Assembly: GCA_044229975.1 (NCBI GenBank)
Contig: JBGARZ010000005.1
Location: 256,001 to 320,000, forward strand
Length of the DNA: 64,000 bases
From: Polyangiales bacterium
GTDB lineage: Bacteria > Myxococcota_A > Polyangia > Polyangiales > Ga0077539
Direction: 5' to 3'
Shown here: positions 22,535 to 34,728 of the stretch, one piece after another
Numbering within the stretch: position 1 is the stretch's first letter
How the letters are laid out: each line of letters opens with the position of its first letter
Program-made: the position numbers and the translations under genes
Notes under the pieces: model-generated
Databases searched by the model: none
The model's input: only the letters and a program-made list of their open reading frames with translations
What the model was told of the DNA's origin: nothing

Positions 22535-23164
22535 ATGATTGGCCGACTGCATGGGCGGGTGGTGTCCGAGTCTCCCGACGGACTGGTGGTGGTCGACGTG
22601 GTGGGCGTCGGCTACGAGGTGTTGATCCCGCTGGGCACGCTCGGGCGGTGCGCACCCGATGCCGAGGGGCGGGTGACGTTGCAGGTGGTGACCCACGTGC
22701 GCGAAGACGCGATCACCCTCTTCGGCTTCGCCAACGACCGCGAGCGCTCGGCCTTCCGGCTGCTCACAGCGGTGGCGGGCGTGGGTCCGCGCACGGCCGT
22801 CTCGGTGCTGAGCGTGCTGCCCTCGGGCGAGCTCGCGCAGGCCGTGGCGGGTGGGGACGTGCGGCGGTTGCAGTCGGTTCCGGGCGTGGGCAAGCGCATC
22901 GCCGAGCGCCTGGTGCTGGAGCTGAAGGACAAGCTCACCGGGCTGTCGTCGGGCTCGTCCGAGGGGCCGTGGCCGACCGTGGGCGCGACGGTGTCGACGG
23001 GTGCGTCGGCGGCGGCCGGTCCGTCGGGCGCGCTGGTGGCGGCGCTGGTCAACATGGGCTTCAAGCCCGCCGAGGCCGAGCGCACGGCGGCCGAGCTCGG
23101 GCCGCGACTCAACGAGCCGCTCGACGTCCTCGTGCGCGAATCACTCCGACGGCTTGTCCGCTGA
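22535..23164 (+). CDS. ruvA: Holliday junction DNA-binding protein RuvA
   Basis: MIGRLHG, GVGYEV, HVREDAITLFGF, HhH GVGPRTA and VPGVGKRIAERL, ALVNMGF. Confidence 0.95.
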   Translation: MIGRLHGRVVSESPDGLVVVDVVGVGYEVLIPLGTLGRCAPDAEGRVTLQVVTHVREDAITLFGFANDRERSAFRLLTAVAGVGPRTAVSVLSVLPSGELAQAVAGGDVRRLQSVPGVGKRIAERLVLELKDKLTGLSSGSSEGPWPTVGATVSTGASAAAGPSGALVAALVNMGFKPAEAERTAAELGPRLNEPLDVLVRESLRRLVR

Positions 23165-23920
23165 CGGAGGCTCGACCGTCGGCTCCGGGGCGGGTGGCGC
23201 GGCCTCTGTCGTCGCAGGTGCGGCCTCGGTGGCGGGCGCTTCATCGTCGCTCAACCCCGCTTGCGAGAGGCGCGCGGTGAGCGCCGCCTGACTCTCCTCG
23301 GAGAGCTCGGTGTACTCGCGCAGCATCGGCAGATCACGCAGCGAGCGCAGCCCGAAGAATTCCAGAAAGAACTTCGACGTCCCGTAGAGCAGCGGCCGCC
23401 CGGGCTCCTCGCGGCGGCCGATGGTGCGCACCAGGTCGCGCTCCAGCAGGATCTTCAGCGCCGACCCGGTGTCGACGCCGCGCACCTCGTCGATCTCGGG
23501 GCGGGTGATGGGCTGCCGGTACGCGACGATGGCGAGCGTCTCCACCTGCGCGCGGCTGAGGCGCACGGGCTTGGCCTGCAACAGCTCGCGGACGAAGGGC
23601 GCGTTGCCCGCGCTCGATCGGAAGAGCCACGCGCCGGCGACCTCGTCGAGGTGGATGCCGCGCGGGAGGTACTCGGTCTGCAACTCGTGGAGGAGTCGAC
23701 GCACCTCGCGCGCTTCGGCGCGGGTGATCTTGGCGAGCTCGGGCACCGTGATGGGGTGATCGCTGACGAAGACGAGGCTCTCCAGCACCGTGCGAAGGTG
23801 CTGCTCGGAGACCGATCGACCGACGGCGCGCGCGACGCCGGGCGACGTGGGGAGGTCACCCTCCTCGTCGGTCTCGGGCTCGGCGGGGGCTTCGCCTTCG
23901 GTCGGGTCGGGGCCGATCAT
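23141..23920 (-). CDS. scpB: SMC segregation/condensation protein B
   Basis: LESLVFVS, LSRAQVETLAIVAYRQPITRPEIDEVRGV, GRPLLYGT, FLEFFGL. Confidence 0.95.
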   Translation of the reverse strand: MIGPDPTEGEAPAEPETDEEGDLPTSPGVARAVGRSVSEQHLRTVLESLVFVSDHPITVPELAKITRAEAREVRRLLHELQTEYLPRGIHLDEVAGAWLFRSSAGNAPFVRELLQAKPVRLSRAQVETLAIVAYRQPITRPEIDEVRGVDTGSALKILLERDLVRTIGRREEPGRPLLYGTSKFFLEFFGLRSLRDLPMLREYTELSEESQAALTARLSQAGLSDDEAPATEAAPATTEAAPPAPEPTVEPPSADKPSE

Positions 23921-24729
23921 CGCCAGTCGTCCCGCACCACGGCCGCGGCGTCGCCGACGTCGGTGAGCACCAGCGTGACGTGGAGATGTTCGTAGCTCCC
24001 CGACTGGTAGAGGCGCGTCATGCGGAGGCGCGTCATCTCCAGCAGCGCGAGGAAGGTGACCACGAGCTCGGAGACGGTTCCGTCGCTCTCGAAGAGCTCG
24101 TCGAAGCGCATCGAGCGGCGATCTTTCAGGCGCTCGACGAGGCTCTGGATGCGGTCGGCGATGGAGATGCGCTCGGGCGTCACCTCGTGCGCGATGGAGA
24201 GCTTGCGGCGCGAGAGCAGCTTCTGAAACGCCTCGATCATGGCGATGGCCGGGAAGGTCGCGAGCGGCGCCTCGCCCGTCGCGTCGGCGGTGACCTCCAT
24301 CCCGCGGGGAAACACGTCGCGACCTGCGACTCCACGCGCGGCCAGCTCCTCGCCCGCGGCGCGAAACTTCTGGTACTCGAGCAGTCGGCGGACGAGCTCG
24401 GCGCGCGGGTCTTCACCCTGCTCGGCGTCGGGGTCGGCGCCCGCGGCCTCGTCGGGCGGCGGCGACGGCAGGAGCATGCGCGACTTGATGTGCGTGAGCG
24501 TCGCGGCCATGAGCAGGTACTCGGCCGCGAGGTCGAGGTTGAGCTTCTGCATCACGGTCACGTACGAGAGGTAACGCTCGGTGATGAACGAGATGGGGAT
24601 GTCGAAGATGTCGAGTTCGTGCTTCTGGATGAGGTGAAGCAGGAGGTCGAGCGGCCCCTCGAACACGTCGAGCTGCACCCGGACGAGCGGGTCATCGGAG
24701 AAGGGCTCGGCGAGGGCGTCGCTGGTCAC
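23917..24729 (-). CDS. scpA: SMC segregation/condensation protein A
   Basis: FEGPLDLLLHLI, EYLLMAATL..IKSRMLLP, LLEYQKFR, VVTFLALLE. Confidence 0.95.
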   Translation of the reverse strand: MTSDALAEPFSDDPLVRVQLDVFEGPLDLLLHLIQKHELDIFDIPISFITERYLSYVTVMQKLNLDLAAEYLLMAATLTHIKSRMLLPSPPPDEAAGADPDAEQGEDPRAELVRRLLEYQKFRAAGEELAARGVAGRDVFPRGMEVTADATGEAPLATFPAIAMIEAFQKLLSRRKLSIAHEVTPERISIADRIQSLVERLKDRRSMRFDELFESDGTVSELVVTFLALLEMTRLRMTRLYQSGSYEHLHVTLVLTDVGDAAAVVRDDWR

Positions 24730-24736
24730 GATGGAC

Positions 24737-25633
24737 TCAACCGCGCGGGTGGAAGCGCGCGTGCGCGGCCTGGAGGTGCTCGACCGTGACGTGCGTGTAG
24801 ATCTGCGTTGTCACGATGTCGGCGTGGCCGAGCATGGTCTGCACGGCGCGGAGGTCGGCGCCGCGCTCCAGCAGGTGCGTGGCGAAGGAGTGGCGGAGCT
24901 TGTGCGGCGAGATGGGGCGGTCGATGCCAGCGACGAGGGCGTACTTCTTGAGCAGCTTCCAGAAGCCCTGGCGGGTCATGGCCGTGCCGCGGTGCGTGAC
25001 GAAGAGGTCGTTGGTGGAGCGGCCCTTGGTGAAGGTCCCGCGCACCGTCTGGAGGTAGAGCATCATCGCTTCGCGGGCGACCTCCCCAAACGGAACGAGC
25101 CGACGCTTCTCCCCCTTGCCGAAGGCGACGAGCACCCCCTGGTCGAGGTCGACGTCGGTGACCTTGAGGTTGACCAGCTCGGACACGCGCAGGCCCGACG
25201 CGTAGAGCACCTGGATCATCGCGCGGTCGCGCACGCCGCGCGGGTTGTTGGCTTCGGGCGCGACGAGCAGCGACTCGACCTCGGGGAAGGTCAGCACGTG
25301 CGGCAGCTTGCGCGGCAGGCGCGGGCCGCTCACCAGCTTCGTCGGGTCGCTCTTCACGCGCCGCTCGGCCACGAGGAACTTGTAGAACCCCCGCAGCGCC
25401 GACAGCTTGCGGGCCTGCGCGCGGGCCGAGAGGCCCTCCTTCGAGAGGGCGATCATCCAGCTCGCGACGTCGCCTCCGTCGATCTCGCAGAAGGTGCGCT
25501 GGAGGTCCTGCCGCACGAAGACGGCGAAGCGCACGAGGTCCGTCGCGTAGGCCTCGACAGAGCGGGCCGCGAGGCCCTTCTCCACCCGGAGGTGCGCGAG
25601 CCACGCGTCGAGCAGCTGGTCATCGTCGGACAC
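24737..25633 (-). CDS. xerD: tyrosine recombinase XerD
   Basis: GLRVSEL, GKGEKRRLVP, HKLRHSFATHLL, QTMLGHADIVTTQIY; upstream of scpA-scpB. Confidence 0.92.
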   Translation of the reverse strand: MSDDDQLLDAWLAHLRVEKGLAARSVEAYATDLVRFAVFVRQDLQRTFCEIDGGDVASWMIALSKEGLSARAQARKLSALRGFYKFLVAERRVKSDPTKLVSGPRLPRKLPHVLTFPEVESLLVAPEANNPRGVRDRAMIQVLYASGLRVSELVNLKVTDVDLDQGVLVAFGKGEKRRLVPFGEVAREAMMLYLQTVRGTFTKGRSTNDLFVTHRGTAMTRQGFWKLLKKYALVAGIDRPISPHKLRHSFATHLLERGADLRAVQTMLGHADIVTTQIYTHVTVEHLQAAHARFHPRG

Positions 25634-25639
25634 GGTCGA

Positions 25640-25645
25640 AAGCTA
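25640..25645 (-). promoter_or_regulatory. -10-like element TAGCTT, 6 nt before the xerD GTG
   Basis: Read directly from sequence; no SD. Confidence 0.4.
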
Positions 25646-25740
25646 CGGGCCCGGGAGGGGAGAGGGCCAGTTTCAGGCCAAAGCGTTGCGTGTTGGCGAA
25701 ACCTGGGGCTATGGTGCGCCGGCGTCGCGCGGAGCGCTTC

Positions 25741-25814
25741 GGGCCTATAGCTCAATTGGTTAGAGCCCCTGACTTATAATCGGGAGGTTTCGGGTTCAAG
25801 TCCCGATGGGCCTA
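25741..25814 (+). tRNA. tRNA-Ile, anticodon TAT (UAU); CCA not encoded
   Basis: Acceptor GGGCCTA/TGGGCCT plus A73; D arm GCTC..GAGC; anticodon stem CCTGA/TCGGG with loop CT-TAT-AA; T arm TCGGG-TTCAAGT-CCCGA. Confidence 0.93.
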
Positions 25815-25865
25815 TCTCTCCGCACGGTGCAGCGTCCTTGCGGCCCGCTCAGTGGAGAAGACACG

Positions 25866-26576
25866 TTGCGCGAACAGCTCCTTGCCCTGGAAGAACTTGC
25901 CAAGAGCGACCTTGCCTGGCGGCAGATCGACGTCGAGCTGGGGGACGTCGACGCCCACCTCACAGCGACCCGATCAGACGTCGACCGCATCCGCGAACTG
26001 CTCGACCGCGAGCGCCAGCAGCTCACCGATGCTCAGCGCCTGAAGCAGACGCACATCGACGAGCTCGCCACCATCGACGACAAGTCGCAGCGCTCCAAGC
26101 GCCGCCAGGAGGTCGCGCGCAACAACCGCGAGATGGAGGCGATGACCCGCGAGATCGAGGTGCTCAAGAAGGAGCGCGAAGAGCGCACCGCCGAGGCCGC
26201 GCGGCTCGACGAGGTGGTGGCCGCGGTGAGCAAGCAGCTCGCCCAGCACGAGGAGGACTTCAAGGGCCTCACCGACATGCTCGCGACCGAAGAGGCGGAG
26301 GCGGTGAAGGCCCGCGAGGCGCTGCTCGCCCGCAAGGAGCTGCACAAGGGCGCGCGCACCGAGCTCACCGGGCGGGTGAAGCCCGAGATTCTTCGCATCT
26401 ACCAGATCGTGCTCAACCGCCGCGGGACGGCCGTGGCCGAGTGCAAGGACGGCATCTGCCGCGGCTGCTACATGGCGACCCCGCCGCAGCTCTACAACGT
26501 GATGTTGCGCGCCGAGAAGATCATCCAGTGCCCCAACTGCCAGCGCATCCTGCTGCCGCCGAACCTGTCCCGCTGA
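25866..26576 (+). CDS. coiled-coil protein with C4 zinc ribbon (DUF164 / CT398-like)
   Basis: Long heptad coiled coil, then CRGCYM ... CPNCQRIL; GGAG before TTG. Confidence 0.88.
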   Translation: MREQLLALEELAKSDLAWRQIDVELGDVDAHLTATRSDVDRIRELLDRERQQLTDAQRLKQTHIDELATIDDKSQRSKRRQEVARNNREMEAMTREIEVLKKEREERTAEAARLDEVVAAVSKQLAQHEEDFKGLTDMLATEEAEAVKAREALLARKELHKGARTELTGRVKPEILRIYQIVLNRRGTAVAECKDGICRGCYMATPPQLYNVMLRAEKIIQCPNCQRILLPPNLSR

Positions 26577-31770: not shown

Positions 31771-32904
31771 GTGAGCGACGTCACCTCCAGGATCTTCTCG
31801 CCCGCCGATCGCTGGGCCATGACGCGCGCGCTGTCCGAGGCCGTCCAGGGGGCGCCCTCCCCCAATCCTCCGGTGGGCGCCGTGGTCGTGCGGGACGGCA
31901 CCATCTATGGCCTGGGGCACCACCACCGCGCGGGCGAAGAGCACGCCGAGGCCATGGCCCTGCGCCATGCGGGAGACGACGCGCGCGGCGCCACGGTCTT
32001 CGTGACGCTCGAACCCTGCAACCACCACGGGCGCACGGCGCCGTGCACCGAAGCGCTGGTTCGCGCGGGCGTGGCGCGCGTGGTGTTCGCGGTGCCCGAC
32101 CCCAATCCGCATGTGCGCGGCCACGGTCGCGAGATGCTCCGCGCGGCGGGCGTCATCGTGGAGGAGGGCTTCCTCCCCGACTTCCAGCGCGAGGCCGAGC
32201 GCATCATCGCGCCGTGGATGCGCTTCATCACGACGGGCCGCGCGCACGTCACGCTGAAGGCCGCGATGTCGCTCGACGGAAGCATCGCATCCCGCGACGG
32301 CGAGAGCCGATGGATCACCTCCGAAGACGCTCGCGTCGACGGCCACAAGCTGCGGGCGCGGTGCGACGCGATCCTCGTGGGCAGCGGCACCGTGCGCGCC
32401 GACGACCCGCTGCTCACCGTGCGCGGCGTGGCGGTGGAGCGAGCCCCGGCGCGGGTGATCGTGTCGCGAGACGCGAGGGTTCCGCTGGAGTCGAAGCTGG
32501 TCGCGACCGCGGGCGAGGCGCCGACCTGGGTGCTTTGCGCGCGCGGTGGCGACGACGATCAGCGCGCGCGGGCGGGAGCTCTCGCCGAACGCGGTGCGAA
32601 CGTCATCGAGGTCGATGCTCGCGACGATGGCGGCGTCGACCTGCGCGCGGCGATGCACACGCTCGCGGGCCTCGGGGTGGTGTCGGTGCTCTGCGAGGGC
32701 GGCGGCGCGCTGCACGGGGCGCTGCGCGACGCGGGCGTGGTCGACCGCGTGGTGGCCTACGTCGCGCCGATGCTGCTCGGCGGCGGGGGATTGCGCGCCA
32801 TCGGCGGCGCCGGGGCCGGGATGCTCGCCGACGCGACGCGCCTGGGCGAATGGGACGTGAAGCGGGTCGGGCCCGACCTGCGCATCGAAGCCGAGGTGGT
32901 CTGA
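31771..32904 (+). CDS. ribD: riboflavin biosynthesis deaminase/reductase
   Basis: PNPPVGAV, HAE, TLEPCNHHGRTAPC, SLDG, WIT, EGGG. Confidence 0.95.
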   Translation: MSDVTSRIFSPADRWAMTRALSEAVQGAPSPNPPVGAVVVRDGTIYGLGHHHRAGEEHAEAMALRHAGDDARGATVFVTLEPCNHHGRTAPCTEALVRAGVARVVFAVPDPNPHVRGHGREMLRAAGVIVEEGFLPDFQREAERIIAPWMRFITTGRAHVTLKAAMSLDGSIASRDGESRWITSEDARVDGHKLRARCDAILVGSGTVRADDPLLTVRGVAVERAPARVIVSRDARVPLESKLVATAGEAPTWVLCARGGDDDQRARAGALAERGANVIEVDARDDGGVDLRAAMHTLAGLGVVSVLCEGGGALHGALRDAGVVDRVVAYVAPMLLGGGGLRAIGGAGAGMLADATRLGEWDVKRVGPDLRIEAEVV

Positions 32905-32908
32905 GTCC

Positions 32909-33568
32909 ATGTTCACGGGGATCATCCAGGCAGTGGGAACCCTGCGCGCGATCGAGCGCCGCGGGGCGGCGGCGTGGCTCGACGTGTCGTGTCCGTTCGC
33001 GAAGCTGGAGCTCGGCGAGAGCATCGCGGTGGACGGCGTGTGCCTCACGGTGACGCGCATCCTCGACGGCGCGTTTACCGCTGATGCCAGCGCCGAGACC
33101 CTCGCGCGCACCACCCTCGGGGCGCGCTCGCCGGGCGCGCGGGTGAACCTCGAACGGGCGCTCGCGCTCGGCGATCGCATGGGCGGTCACATCGTGTCGG
33201 GGCACGTCGACGGGGTGGGCGAGGTCGTGCGCCGCGAGCGGGTGGAGAGCGCCGAGCGGGTGGTGTTTCGTGGGCCGCGCGAGGTGCTGCGGTACATCGC
33301 CGAGAAGGGCAGCGTTGCGATCGACGGGGTAAGCCTGACGGTCAACGCGGTGGCGGGCGAGACGTTCGAGGTGATGCTGGTGCCGTTCACCCAGGGGGCG
33401 ACGACGTTGACCGAGAGGCGCGTGGGTGACCGCGTGAACCTTGAGGTAGACGTCATCGCCCGGTACGTGGCGCGGGCGTTGACCTGGGACCGCGAGACAC
33501 CACAACCCGGCGCGGCGGACGACGCCCGGTGGCGGGCCCTGCTCGAAGGCTTCGGAAAAGGACAGTGA
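32909..33568 (+). CDS. ribE: riboflavin synthase (alpha)
   Basis: [35 protein letters not shown]. Confidence 0.95.
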
Positions 33569-34728
33569 CGATGCTCGAAGGAACGGCAGAGACCCGCGTG
33601 CGCGCGGCGGTGGCGGCGATCCGCGAGGGGCGGATGGTGATTCTCACGGACGACGAAGACCGCGAGAACGAGGGCGACCTGGTGCTGGCGGCCGAGCGGG
33701 TGACGCCGGAGGCCATCAACTTCATGGCCAAGCACGCGCGCGGACTCATCTGCCTGACGCTGACCGAAGACCACATCGAGCGGCTGCGCCTGCCGATGAT
33801 GGTGGAGAAGAACAAGGCGTCGCTCGGCACGGCGTTTACCGTGAGCGTCGAGGCGCGCGAGGGCGTCACCACGGGCATCTCGGCGGCCGACCGCGCGCAC
33901 ACCGTGCGGGTCGCGGTGGCGCCCAACACGAAGCCCGAAGACCTCGTCTCGCCGGGGCACATCTTCCCGCTGCGGGCGCGGCCCGGCGGTGTGCTTCAGC
34001 GCACCGGGCAGACCGAGGGCAGCATCGACCTCGCGGTGCTCGCGGGGCTGCACCCGTCGGGGGTCATCTGCGAGATCATGAACGACGACGGCACCATGGC
34101 GCGCATGCCGGAGCTGGTGGAGTTCTCGCGCATCCACGACGTGCCGCTGGTGACCATCGAGGACCTCATCCAGTTTCGGTTGATGACCGACCGGCTGGTG
34201 CGGCGGGTGAGCTCGGCGAAGTTTACCCCGCGGGGTATGTCGAAGGTCTGGGAGGCCCACGTCTACGAGGCGTCGGTCGAGGCGGGGCGGCAGTTCCTGG
34301 CGTTGGTTCATGGCGAGCCGACGGCGGATGAGCCGACGCTGGTGCGGATGCACCCGGGGGCGGTGTTTGCCGACCTGTTCGCGCCGTCGACGACCTCGGA
34401 TGGAAAGCCCATCGTCGGGGGCGGGGAGTACCTCGCCGAGGCGATGCACCACATGGAGCGTGAGGGCGCCGGCGTGGTGGTGTACCTCCCCCCGCGGCAC
34501 CTCGACCTGCTCGAAGACCTGCGGCAACTCACTGGTGAAGCGCCCACGCGCACGCACGACATCGCGAGCAACGGGTCGCCCGCGCAGCGCGAGCACGGCA
34601 TGGGGGCGCAGGTGCTGCGCGACCTCGGGCTGCGGAAGATCCGGCTGATGACCAACAACCCGCGGCGCCTCGTGGGCCTGAGCGCCTACGACCTCGAAGT
34701 CGTCGAGCGGGTCGGGCTCGGCGCGTAG
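33565..34728 (+). CDS. ribB: DHBP synthase fused to a degenerate GTP cyclohydrolase II-like domain (RibBX-like)
   Basis: [29 protein letters not shown]; the C-domain has [13 protein letters not shown] and no Zn-binding Cys. Confidence 0.9.

Follow-up and report, generated by a model that had tools for sequence, protein, structure and literature searches.

A UAU-anticodon tRNA-Ile in the tRNA-Ile2 locus of the Polyangiales family Ga0077539, and a conserved TilS ortholog without catalytic motifs

Introduction

The lysidine synthetase TilS is regarded as near-universal and essential, and a 1093-genome-scale survey reports it in 98.18% of bacteria (PMC6063277). Decoding of AUA without TilS, by a tRNA-Ile with a UAU anticodon, is described for Mycoplasma, Bifidobacterium, Neorickettsia and a Spiroplasma (PMC3575796; PMC5861454; PMC13602947). 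In Mycoplasma mobile, UAU replaces CAU on the tRNA-Ile2 gene, and charging of the UAU tRNA is reported to be enabled by a Trp-to-Arg change in isoleucyl-tRNA synthetase (IleRS; Arg865, equivalent to Trp905 of E. coli), the E. coli enzyme with Trp charging a UAU tRNA at ~1% efficiency (Taniguchi et al. 2013, PMC3575796). Bifidobacterium and Neorickettsia are listed with tRNA-Ile(TAT), a type 2 IleRS and no tilS (PMC3575796). In the laboratory, a B. subtilis tilS deletion was suppressed by a G34U change in tRNA1-Ile, a GAU tRNA (Kohrer et al. 2014, PMC3919564), and unmodified U34 is reported to read AUA much better than AUG (PMC3575796, PMC3919564). A non-catalytic role is also on record for TilS, namely the TilS-HprT activator of ftsH of B. 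subtilis, in which TilS is catalytically active, tilS lies directly upstream of ftsH and hprT is adjacent (PMC8152036).

The tRNA-Ile gene studied here lies in a 64,000-nucleotide stretch of DNA (the window) from a Polyangiales metagenome-assembled genome (MAG) of 10.0 Mb, with 71% GC and 93% completeness. The source genome was compared with its relatives in the Polyangiales family Ga0077539, the family set consisting of 31 genomes in 10 genera, all of them incomplete MAGs. Ga0077539 and SCUS01 are named among the activated-sludge Myxococcota (PMC11821767). As in M. mobile, UAU replaces CAU on the Ile2 gene, no lysidine synthetase activity is expected, and Arg occupies the wobble-contact position of IleRS in six family members. 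Unlike M. mobile, the family is free-living, has genomes of 5-12 Mb with ~65-77% GC and very rare AUA, and has not deleted tilS but keeps it as a conserved motif-less ortholog (28/31 genomes), and the IleRS of the source genome retains Trp. The type 2 IleRS of 11/31 genomes is shared with Bifidobacterium and Neorickettsia; in contrast to these, 20 family genomes including the source have a type 1 IleRS, and the tilS ortholog is kept. The B. subtilis suppressor offers the model of an unmodified U34 that reads AUA strongly and AUG weakly, although here the change is natural and fixed, and lies in a CAU-type gene.

The motif-less TilS ortholog resembles the B. subtilis TilS-HprT case in its position directly upstream of ftsH and in a possible non-catalytic role; it differs in that the motifs are lost and hpt is elsewhere. 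In its predicted fold and domain layout it is like the type II TilS of Aquifex aeolicus (PDB 1WY5/2E21/2E89), but little or nothing is left of the SGGxDS, HxxR, ARxxRY, HxxDDxxET and DxSN motifs. TilS-free UAU decoding was known already, whereas a conserved, apparently dead TilS was unreported in the literature searched (at abstract level, with subscription journals and bioRxiv supplements thinly covered), which likewise gave no report of the UAU tRNA of this family. No myxobacterium is listed in the examined rows of Table S1 of PMC3575796. The conserved pseudo-TilS and the occurrence of three synthetase solutions in one family set these bacteria apart from the known UAU cases, and the family would be a case in which the abandonment of lysidine has become fixed in free-living bacteria with large genomes.

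Results and discussion

The tRNA-Ile gene and its locus

The only tRNA gene found in the window by ARAGORN is tRNA-Ile(tat). For the genome-wide tRNA calls an intron-free run was used, since allowing introns produced numerous false calls in the GC-rich source genome. The gene and its immediate surroundings comprise the following features.

24737..25633, minus strand: xerD, the divergent upstream neighbour (TIGR02225, 361 bits, over the cut-off)
25686..25691, plus strand: hexamer TTGCGT resembling a -35 element, part of a conserved promoter-like motif (pattern in 29/29 family loci)
25710..25715, plus strand: -10-like hexamer TATGGT of the same pattern, 25 nt upstream of the tRNA
25741..25814, plus strand: tRNA-Ile with a TAT anticodon on a tRNA-Ile2 body, without an encoded CCA (ARAGORN, Rfam)
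25775..25777, plus strand: anticodon TAT (U34-A35-U36); other families have CAT at the equivalent position
25866..26576, plus strand: gene for a C4-type zinc-ribbon coiled-coil protein (PF02591)

The gene matched the Rfam model RF00005 over its full length with 67 bits (gathering score 29). The intact cloverleaf claimed in the initial annotation, with the loop CT-TAT-AA, the pairs C4-G69 and C5-G68, and A73, was borne out by the sequence, ARAGORN and RF00005; wobble pairs are found at G1-U72, U6-G67 and U29-G41. Across 27 aligned tRNAs from the family and the outgroups, 99.6% of the cloverleaf pairs are standard, compensatory changes are seen in the stems, and C4-G69 and C5-G68 occur in all 27. 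The 14 family tRNAs in the alignment have, apart from U34, A44-G45 and G51-C63 in common, the latter pair being U-A or A-U in the 13 outgroup genes.

An Ile2-type tRNA with TAT was found in 29/31 family genomes, in every case between xerD and the zinc-ribbon gene, and the tRNA beside xerD, which had been singled out for comparison among relatives, thus has TAT at 29/29 family loci. The zinc-ribbon gene was likewise not found in the remaining two genomes, and hence the Ile2 locus is probably unassembled there. While xerD adjoins the tRNA in 29/29 family loci, it does so in 0/14 outgroup Ile2 loci, and it is a family-specific context outside the mechanism. The zinc-ribbon gene lies downstream of the tRNA in 29/29 family loci and in 11/14 outgroup Ile2(CAT) loci, and this shared gene order indicates that it marks the ancestral tRNA-Ile2 locus and that the TAT gene is the ortholog of CAT Ile2. 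The 14 outgroup Ile2 genes first fetched all have CAT, as do two more. The proposal of a C34-to-U change in an Ile2 gene agrees with these data, both the tRNA body and the downstream neighbour matching those of the CAT tRNA of other families. As judged by these comparisons, the anticodon switch is family-wide and lies within the ancestral Ile2 locus, and other families keep CAT.

A promoter-like motif (TTGCG-N, an 18-nt spacer and TA-NNN-T) was present 13-30 nt upstream of the tRNA in 29/29 family loci, the pattern being our own and used without a shuffle control. A scan of the region upstream of the tRNA with a promoter tool gave nothing over the threshold. Elsewhere in the window, genes downstream of xerD (23141-24729, minus strand), presumably scpB/scpA-like, and a run of what we take to be the riboflavin genes ribD, ribE and a ribBA-like gene (31771-34728, plus strand), all named by motifs, form an ordinary housekeeping context.

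As expected from the initial annotation, a genome-wide tRNA check of the source genome found neither a second Ile2-type gene nor a CAT Ile2 gene. Its Met tRNA genes comprise an initiator, an elongator and a 3' remnant. The source assembly is without 16S rRNA and tRNA-Ile(GAT), and arguments from absence that use this genome alone are therefore weak. In the family as a whole, an Ile2-type CAT gene was found in 0/31 genomes, and CAT matches were either of the initiator- or elongator-Met type or non-tRNA; an odd CAT match in genome G010 was set aside as initiator-like. On gene content, tRNA-Ile(UAU) is the only candidate AUA reader found in the family.

Outside the family, a TAT-tRNA pattern gave matches in 9/370 genomes of the order and in 0/397 genomes of the phylum sample. 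A second, independent switch in the order was considered and rejected for the four of the nine non-family matches that were fetched, none being an Ile2-locus tRNA. The match in G171 is a tRNA half within a longer RNA, and this genome has CAT Ile2 and a canonical TilS; the match in G331 is to a degenerate member of a tRNA array; those in G322 and G249 gave no tRNA, and G249 has CAT Ile2.

AUA codons and U34 modification

ATA is rare, at 0.2-0.5% of Ile codons. In the source genome it accounts for 223 of 67,885 Ile codons (4,862 genes, called with our own codon model) and, when the penalty on ATA was relaxed, for 68 of 13,564 (0.50%). The share of ATA among Ile codons was 6/3042 in family samples and 16/3501 in outgroup samples (p = 0.087), one outgroup genome having yielded almost no called genes. 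An extra depletion of AUA in the family is unsupported by this p-value and by the 0.50% in the source genome; given the former, AUA rarity is taken as a pre-existing condition and not clearly a consequence of the switch. AUG codons are > 100-fold commoner than AUA.

At 67 ATA sites aligned with paralogs, the aligned residues were Ile in 26.5% and Met in 3.8%, as compared with 27.0% and 2.3% at ATT sites and with 5.2% and 24.6% at ATG sites. The ATA profile matches ATT/ATC, unlike ATG, which indicates that AUA still encodes Ile; reassignment of AUA to Met was ruled out by the same profile. In ribosomal protein S12, the decoding loops showed no telling change among 22 family and 8 outgroup sequences.

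MnmG was found in 0/61 Polyangiales genomes and in 9/14 controls, and no MnmE over the cut-off was found in the source genome, which has MnmA and TsaD. As the order is without MnmG, U34 is likely unmodified. Of the two options offered at the outset, AUA decoding by an unmodified U34 or an unknown U34 modification, the first is the likelier one, MnmEG being absent. The lack of MnmG in the order and of MnmE in the source genome, beside an MnmA, also bears, as a separate matter, on the completion of U34 in the Lys, Glu and Gln tRNAs of the order.

Isoleucyl-tRNA synthetases

Three forms of IleRS are distributed over the 31 genomes, namely type 2 in 11, type 1 with Trp in 14 and type 1 with Arg in six. 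Type 2 was assigned by PF19302, which we take to be a marker of that form and which fits the control pattern. The source genome encodes a type 1 enzyme with the wobble-stacking Trp kept (CDRCWRR), and five outgroup type 1 IleRS also have Trp. The six Arg-type enzymes fall in one subclade (SH-aLRT 98), and the three solutions would include an independent arrival at the Arg of M. mobile. In genome G002 the ileS frame is split into parts of 634 + 140 aa (L133, G002:C3:166378-167275), probably by an assembly frameshift.

The motif-less TilS ortholog

TilS over the TIGR02432 cut-off was found in 0/31 family genomes and in 29/30 other genomes. Two weak matches to TIGR02432 in the source genome correspond to TtcA and to the following protein, and a six-frame search of this genome with an outgroup TilS profile gave nothing beyond these two.

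C38:143068-144063, minus strand: motif-less TilS, 331 residues (TIGR02432, 25.7 bits; cut-off 93.6)

The supposition that lysidine synthetase might be missing therefore stood in so far as no tilS exceeded the cut-off, but a conserved ortholog without catalytic motifs was present and had not been foreseen. An intact tilS together with a CAT Ile2 tRNA, the finding that the initial annotation had set against itself, was not found in the source genome. For annotation, calls of tilS presence mislead here, since sensitive searches say present and strict ones absent.

The motif-less TilS is present in 28/31 family genomes; a search of the remaining three with a profile, one of them being 96% complete in 1850 contigs, gave no match. 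The gene ftsH lies directly downstream of it in 28/28 loci, and downstream of canonical tilS in 26/30 outgroup loci. In a quick tree of 27 rows with the broken copy excluded, the motif-less proteins form one group (SH-aLRT 100); the TtcA outgroup falls among canonical TilS, and so the tree has no reliable root. The AlphaFold model has a pLDDT of 88, and its best Foldseek match is Aquifex TilS (E 2.5e-16).

The catalytic positions are lost almost without exception. Neither the Ser nor the Asp of the PP-loop is kept in any of the 28 proteins, and the same holds for the Arg and Tyr of RY, the Glu of DDQAET, and the Asp and Asn of DxSN, while the His of DH is kept in 1/28. The SGGXDS motif is described as the ATP-binding loop that activates C34 (PMC12069591). 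At the same positions canonical TilS has the catalytic residue in 22-25 of 25; this set, 25/30 loci, was selected by the SGGxDS motif and is an independent control only for the other motifs. The motif-less protein keeps D131, R162, P163 and a conserved LPRLR helix, and is basic (pI ~11 in genus g1); its invariant positions number 5 of 360 alignment columns.

For the motif-less tilS, Nei-Gojobori dN/dS values of 0.05-0.28 (genus g1) and 0.12-0.45 (g5) were obtained, from 21 pairs each. The median in g1 is 0.19, as compared with 0.20 for the neighbouring RlmD-like gene, and canonical TilS gave 0.20-0.34 in three pairs, a fourth pair being saturated. An open frame with normal codon-position GC is retained in ten genera, at identities as low as 28%. 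One genome has a copy interrupted after 159 residues, and in four genera the protein is shortened to 208-240 residues, with loss of the C-terminal domain. Being under purifying selection, the motif-less TilS would do something. With the fold kept, the catalytic residues lost and selection persisting, it is likely a pseudoenzyme, the loss of activity being read from the motifs. TilS catalysis would thereby be separated from other roles of the protein (no C34 substrate, motifs gone, selection continuing), and a dead but selected TilS would give a direct handle on TilS moonlighting.

Among the 150 matches listed from a search of 1.84 billion representatives, the best 25 are without the PP-loop motif and 122 are canonical TilS, and a search of the ESM Atlas with the motif-less TilS gave ordinary TilS clusters only. 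The motif-less form seems limited to a few dozen clusters. Contigs from four RNA runs at the gene mainly cover ftsH of other organisms.

In the source genome the gene order is mnmA, an unknown ORF, an rlmD-like gene, motif-less tilS and ftsH (L099, G000:C38:136773-147187, minus strand), with mnmA ~2 kb upstream of the motif-less tilS on the same strand. Genes after ftsH, named by motifs, are presumably folP-like, diadenylate-cyclase-like, YbbR-like and glmM-like. The hpt gene is present in 29/31 family genomes and unlinked to the motif-less tilS in the source genome. As to other PP-loop proteins, many members of g5, g9 and g10 have two matches of TtcA-like score per genome, and g1, g2 and g7 have one.

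Proposed mechanism

We put the probability at about 0.75 that an Ile-charged tRNA reads AUA via an unmodified U34 and without lysidine, and that tilS has lost its catalytic motifs yet been kept, likely for a non-enzymatic job. The family ancestor would have undergone a C34-to-U change in its only tRNA-Ile2 gene, and the resulting tRNA would read AUA directly with a UAU anticodon that is likely unmodified. The tRNA would be charged with Ile by IleRS. AUG would mostly be avoided, since an unmodified U34 is expected to form a good pair with A and a weak one with G, and competition would come from tRNA-Met. The very low demand for AUA and the order-wide lack of the MnmEG pathway for U34 may have made the switch cheap. 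Tuning of the synthetase would have come later and in part of the family only, with Trp-to-Arg in one subclade. The lysidine enzyme is likely no longer needed in the family, and the odds are about even that the motif-less TilS has kept a role linked to the ftsH operon, in nucleic-acid binding or in regulation, by analogy with TilS-HprT.

Several observations sit uneasily with this reading. AUA is not clearly rarer in the family than in the outgroups, and the S12 decoding loops are without a telling change. The IleRS of the source genome keeps Trp, the residue tied to ~1% charging of a UAU tRNA in E. coli; the truncated forms of the motif-less TilS (159 and 208-240 residues) also fit slow decay; and hpt is not linked to the motif-less tilS in the source genome. 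What UAU charging and AUG avoidance demand could be tested with cloned family genes, and AUA is also a target for genetic-code expansion.

Alternative explanations

An alternative that we regard as rather unlikely is that AUA is read without lysidine by a U34 bearing a restricting modification (2-thio-U, pseudouridine or a new one), with the motif-less TilS kept for that step as a partner or adaptor that binds the tRNA without catalysis. Other systems have inactive PP-loop partners (Ctu2/Ncs2), and the retained fold, basic character, D131, R162, P163 and LPRLR helix would suit such a role, as would the C4-G69 and C5-G68 pairs kept in 27/27 tRNAs, although these acceptor pairs may be merely IleRS identity elements. 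The nearness of mnmA to the motif-less tilS points the same way, but MnmA needs U35 and tRNA-Ile(UAU) has A35. A modification could also help the Trp-type IleRS of 14 genomes, and fidelity pressure would be high, because AUG outnumbers AUA > 100-fold. Against this, U34 is unmodified in both UAU cases studied, few positions of the motif-less TilS are conserved (5/360) and its C-terminal domain is lost in four genera. We are similarly doubtful of the motif-less TilS as a dead tRNA-binding fidelity factor that would hold, shield or deliver tRNA-Ile(UAU), assisting charging by Trp-type IleRS and avoidance of AUG. If this were true, the lysidine enzyme would survive as a pseudoenzyme repurposed after the switch in the route of AUA decoding, and the family, with its Trp, Arg and type 2 synthetases and its long and short forms of the motif-less TilS, would make up a natural series in which the AUN box was rewired stepwise.

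It is unlikely that the tRNA acts as in the preferred reading while the motif-less TilS is functionless and slowly decaying, its frame held open by its place in the rlmD-ftsH operon. Long branches, repeated C-terminal truncation, the one broken copy and the three of 31 genomes in which the gene was not found (among them the one at 96% completeness in 1850 contigs) would fit such decay, but a dN/dS of ~0.19, equal to that of the neighbouring enzyme and of the three canonical TilS pairs, and a frame kept open over ten genera with normal codon-position GC argue against it.

It is very unlikely that the UAU tRNA is an accessory reader of AUA, with a CAT tRNA-Ile2 and a functional lysidine synthetase both overlooked, or with the motif-less TilS still active through a rewired site. 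All of the genomes are incomplete MAGs, tRNA-Ile(GAT) and rRNA being missing from the source assembly, and bacteria with both systems are reported (PMC3575796). However, the TAT gene sits in the Ile2 locus itself, canonical TilS and Ile2-type CAT are 0/31 where single-copy hpt is 29/31, and five separate motifs are erased in the motif-less TilS.

Finally, the reading of the gene as a pseudogene, or of its T at 25775 as an error of sequencing or assembly, is ruled out by two contigs with 0 differences across the gene (25595-25854 and 25580-25908; from different public DNA runs, either of which might be the source sample) and by the same anticodon in 28 other family genomes, which together confirm the T that was to be checked against reads, and it is further opposed by the compensatory stem changes and the conserved promoter-like motif, even though C at 25775 also occurs in contigs from all four DNA runs aligned at 80% likeness, which are read as CAT tRNAs of other organisms, many of them fitting the tRNA part only.

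Observations in other loci

A TAT-anticodon tRNA on an Arg-type body precedes tRNA-Pro(TGG)/His/Arg/Lys in genome G011 (G011:C103, L181:6023-6099, minus strand), and owing to its body type it was not counted as an ortholog. The equivalent slot in the source genome holds tRNA-Arg(TCT), which a pattern search did not find in G011 or in G018. The G011 gene would reflect either a fault of the assembly or a genuine change of anticodon.

In G171:C14 (L177:3617-3748), an RNA with tRNA-like 5' and 3' ends, an expanded middle and a TAT loop lies upstream of a 534-aa ORF. We take this ORF to be Ro60/TROVE-like, and the RNA presumably resembles Y RNA/YrlA. In G331, a non-family member of the Polyangiales, the degenerate tRNA-Ile(TAT) belongs to a dense tRNA array that also has an HNH-like ORF (G331:C90:1-2500, L180). 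At G000:C2:10385-10457 ARAGORN called a tRNA-Arg whose anticodon is the rare GCG and whose D arm is non-canonical.
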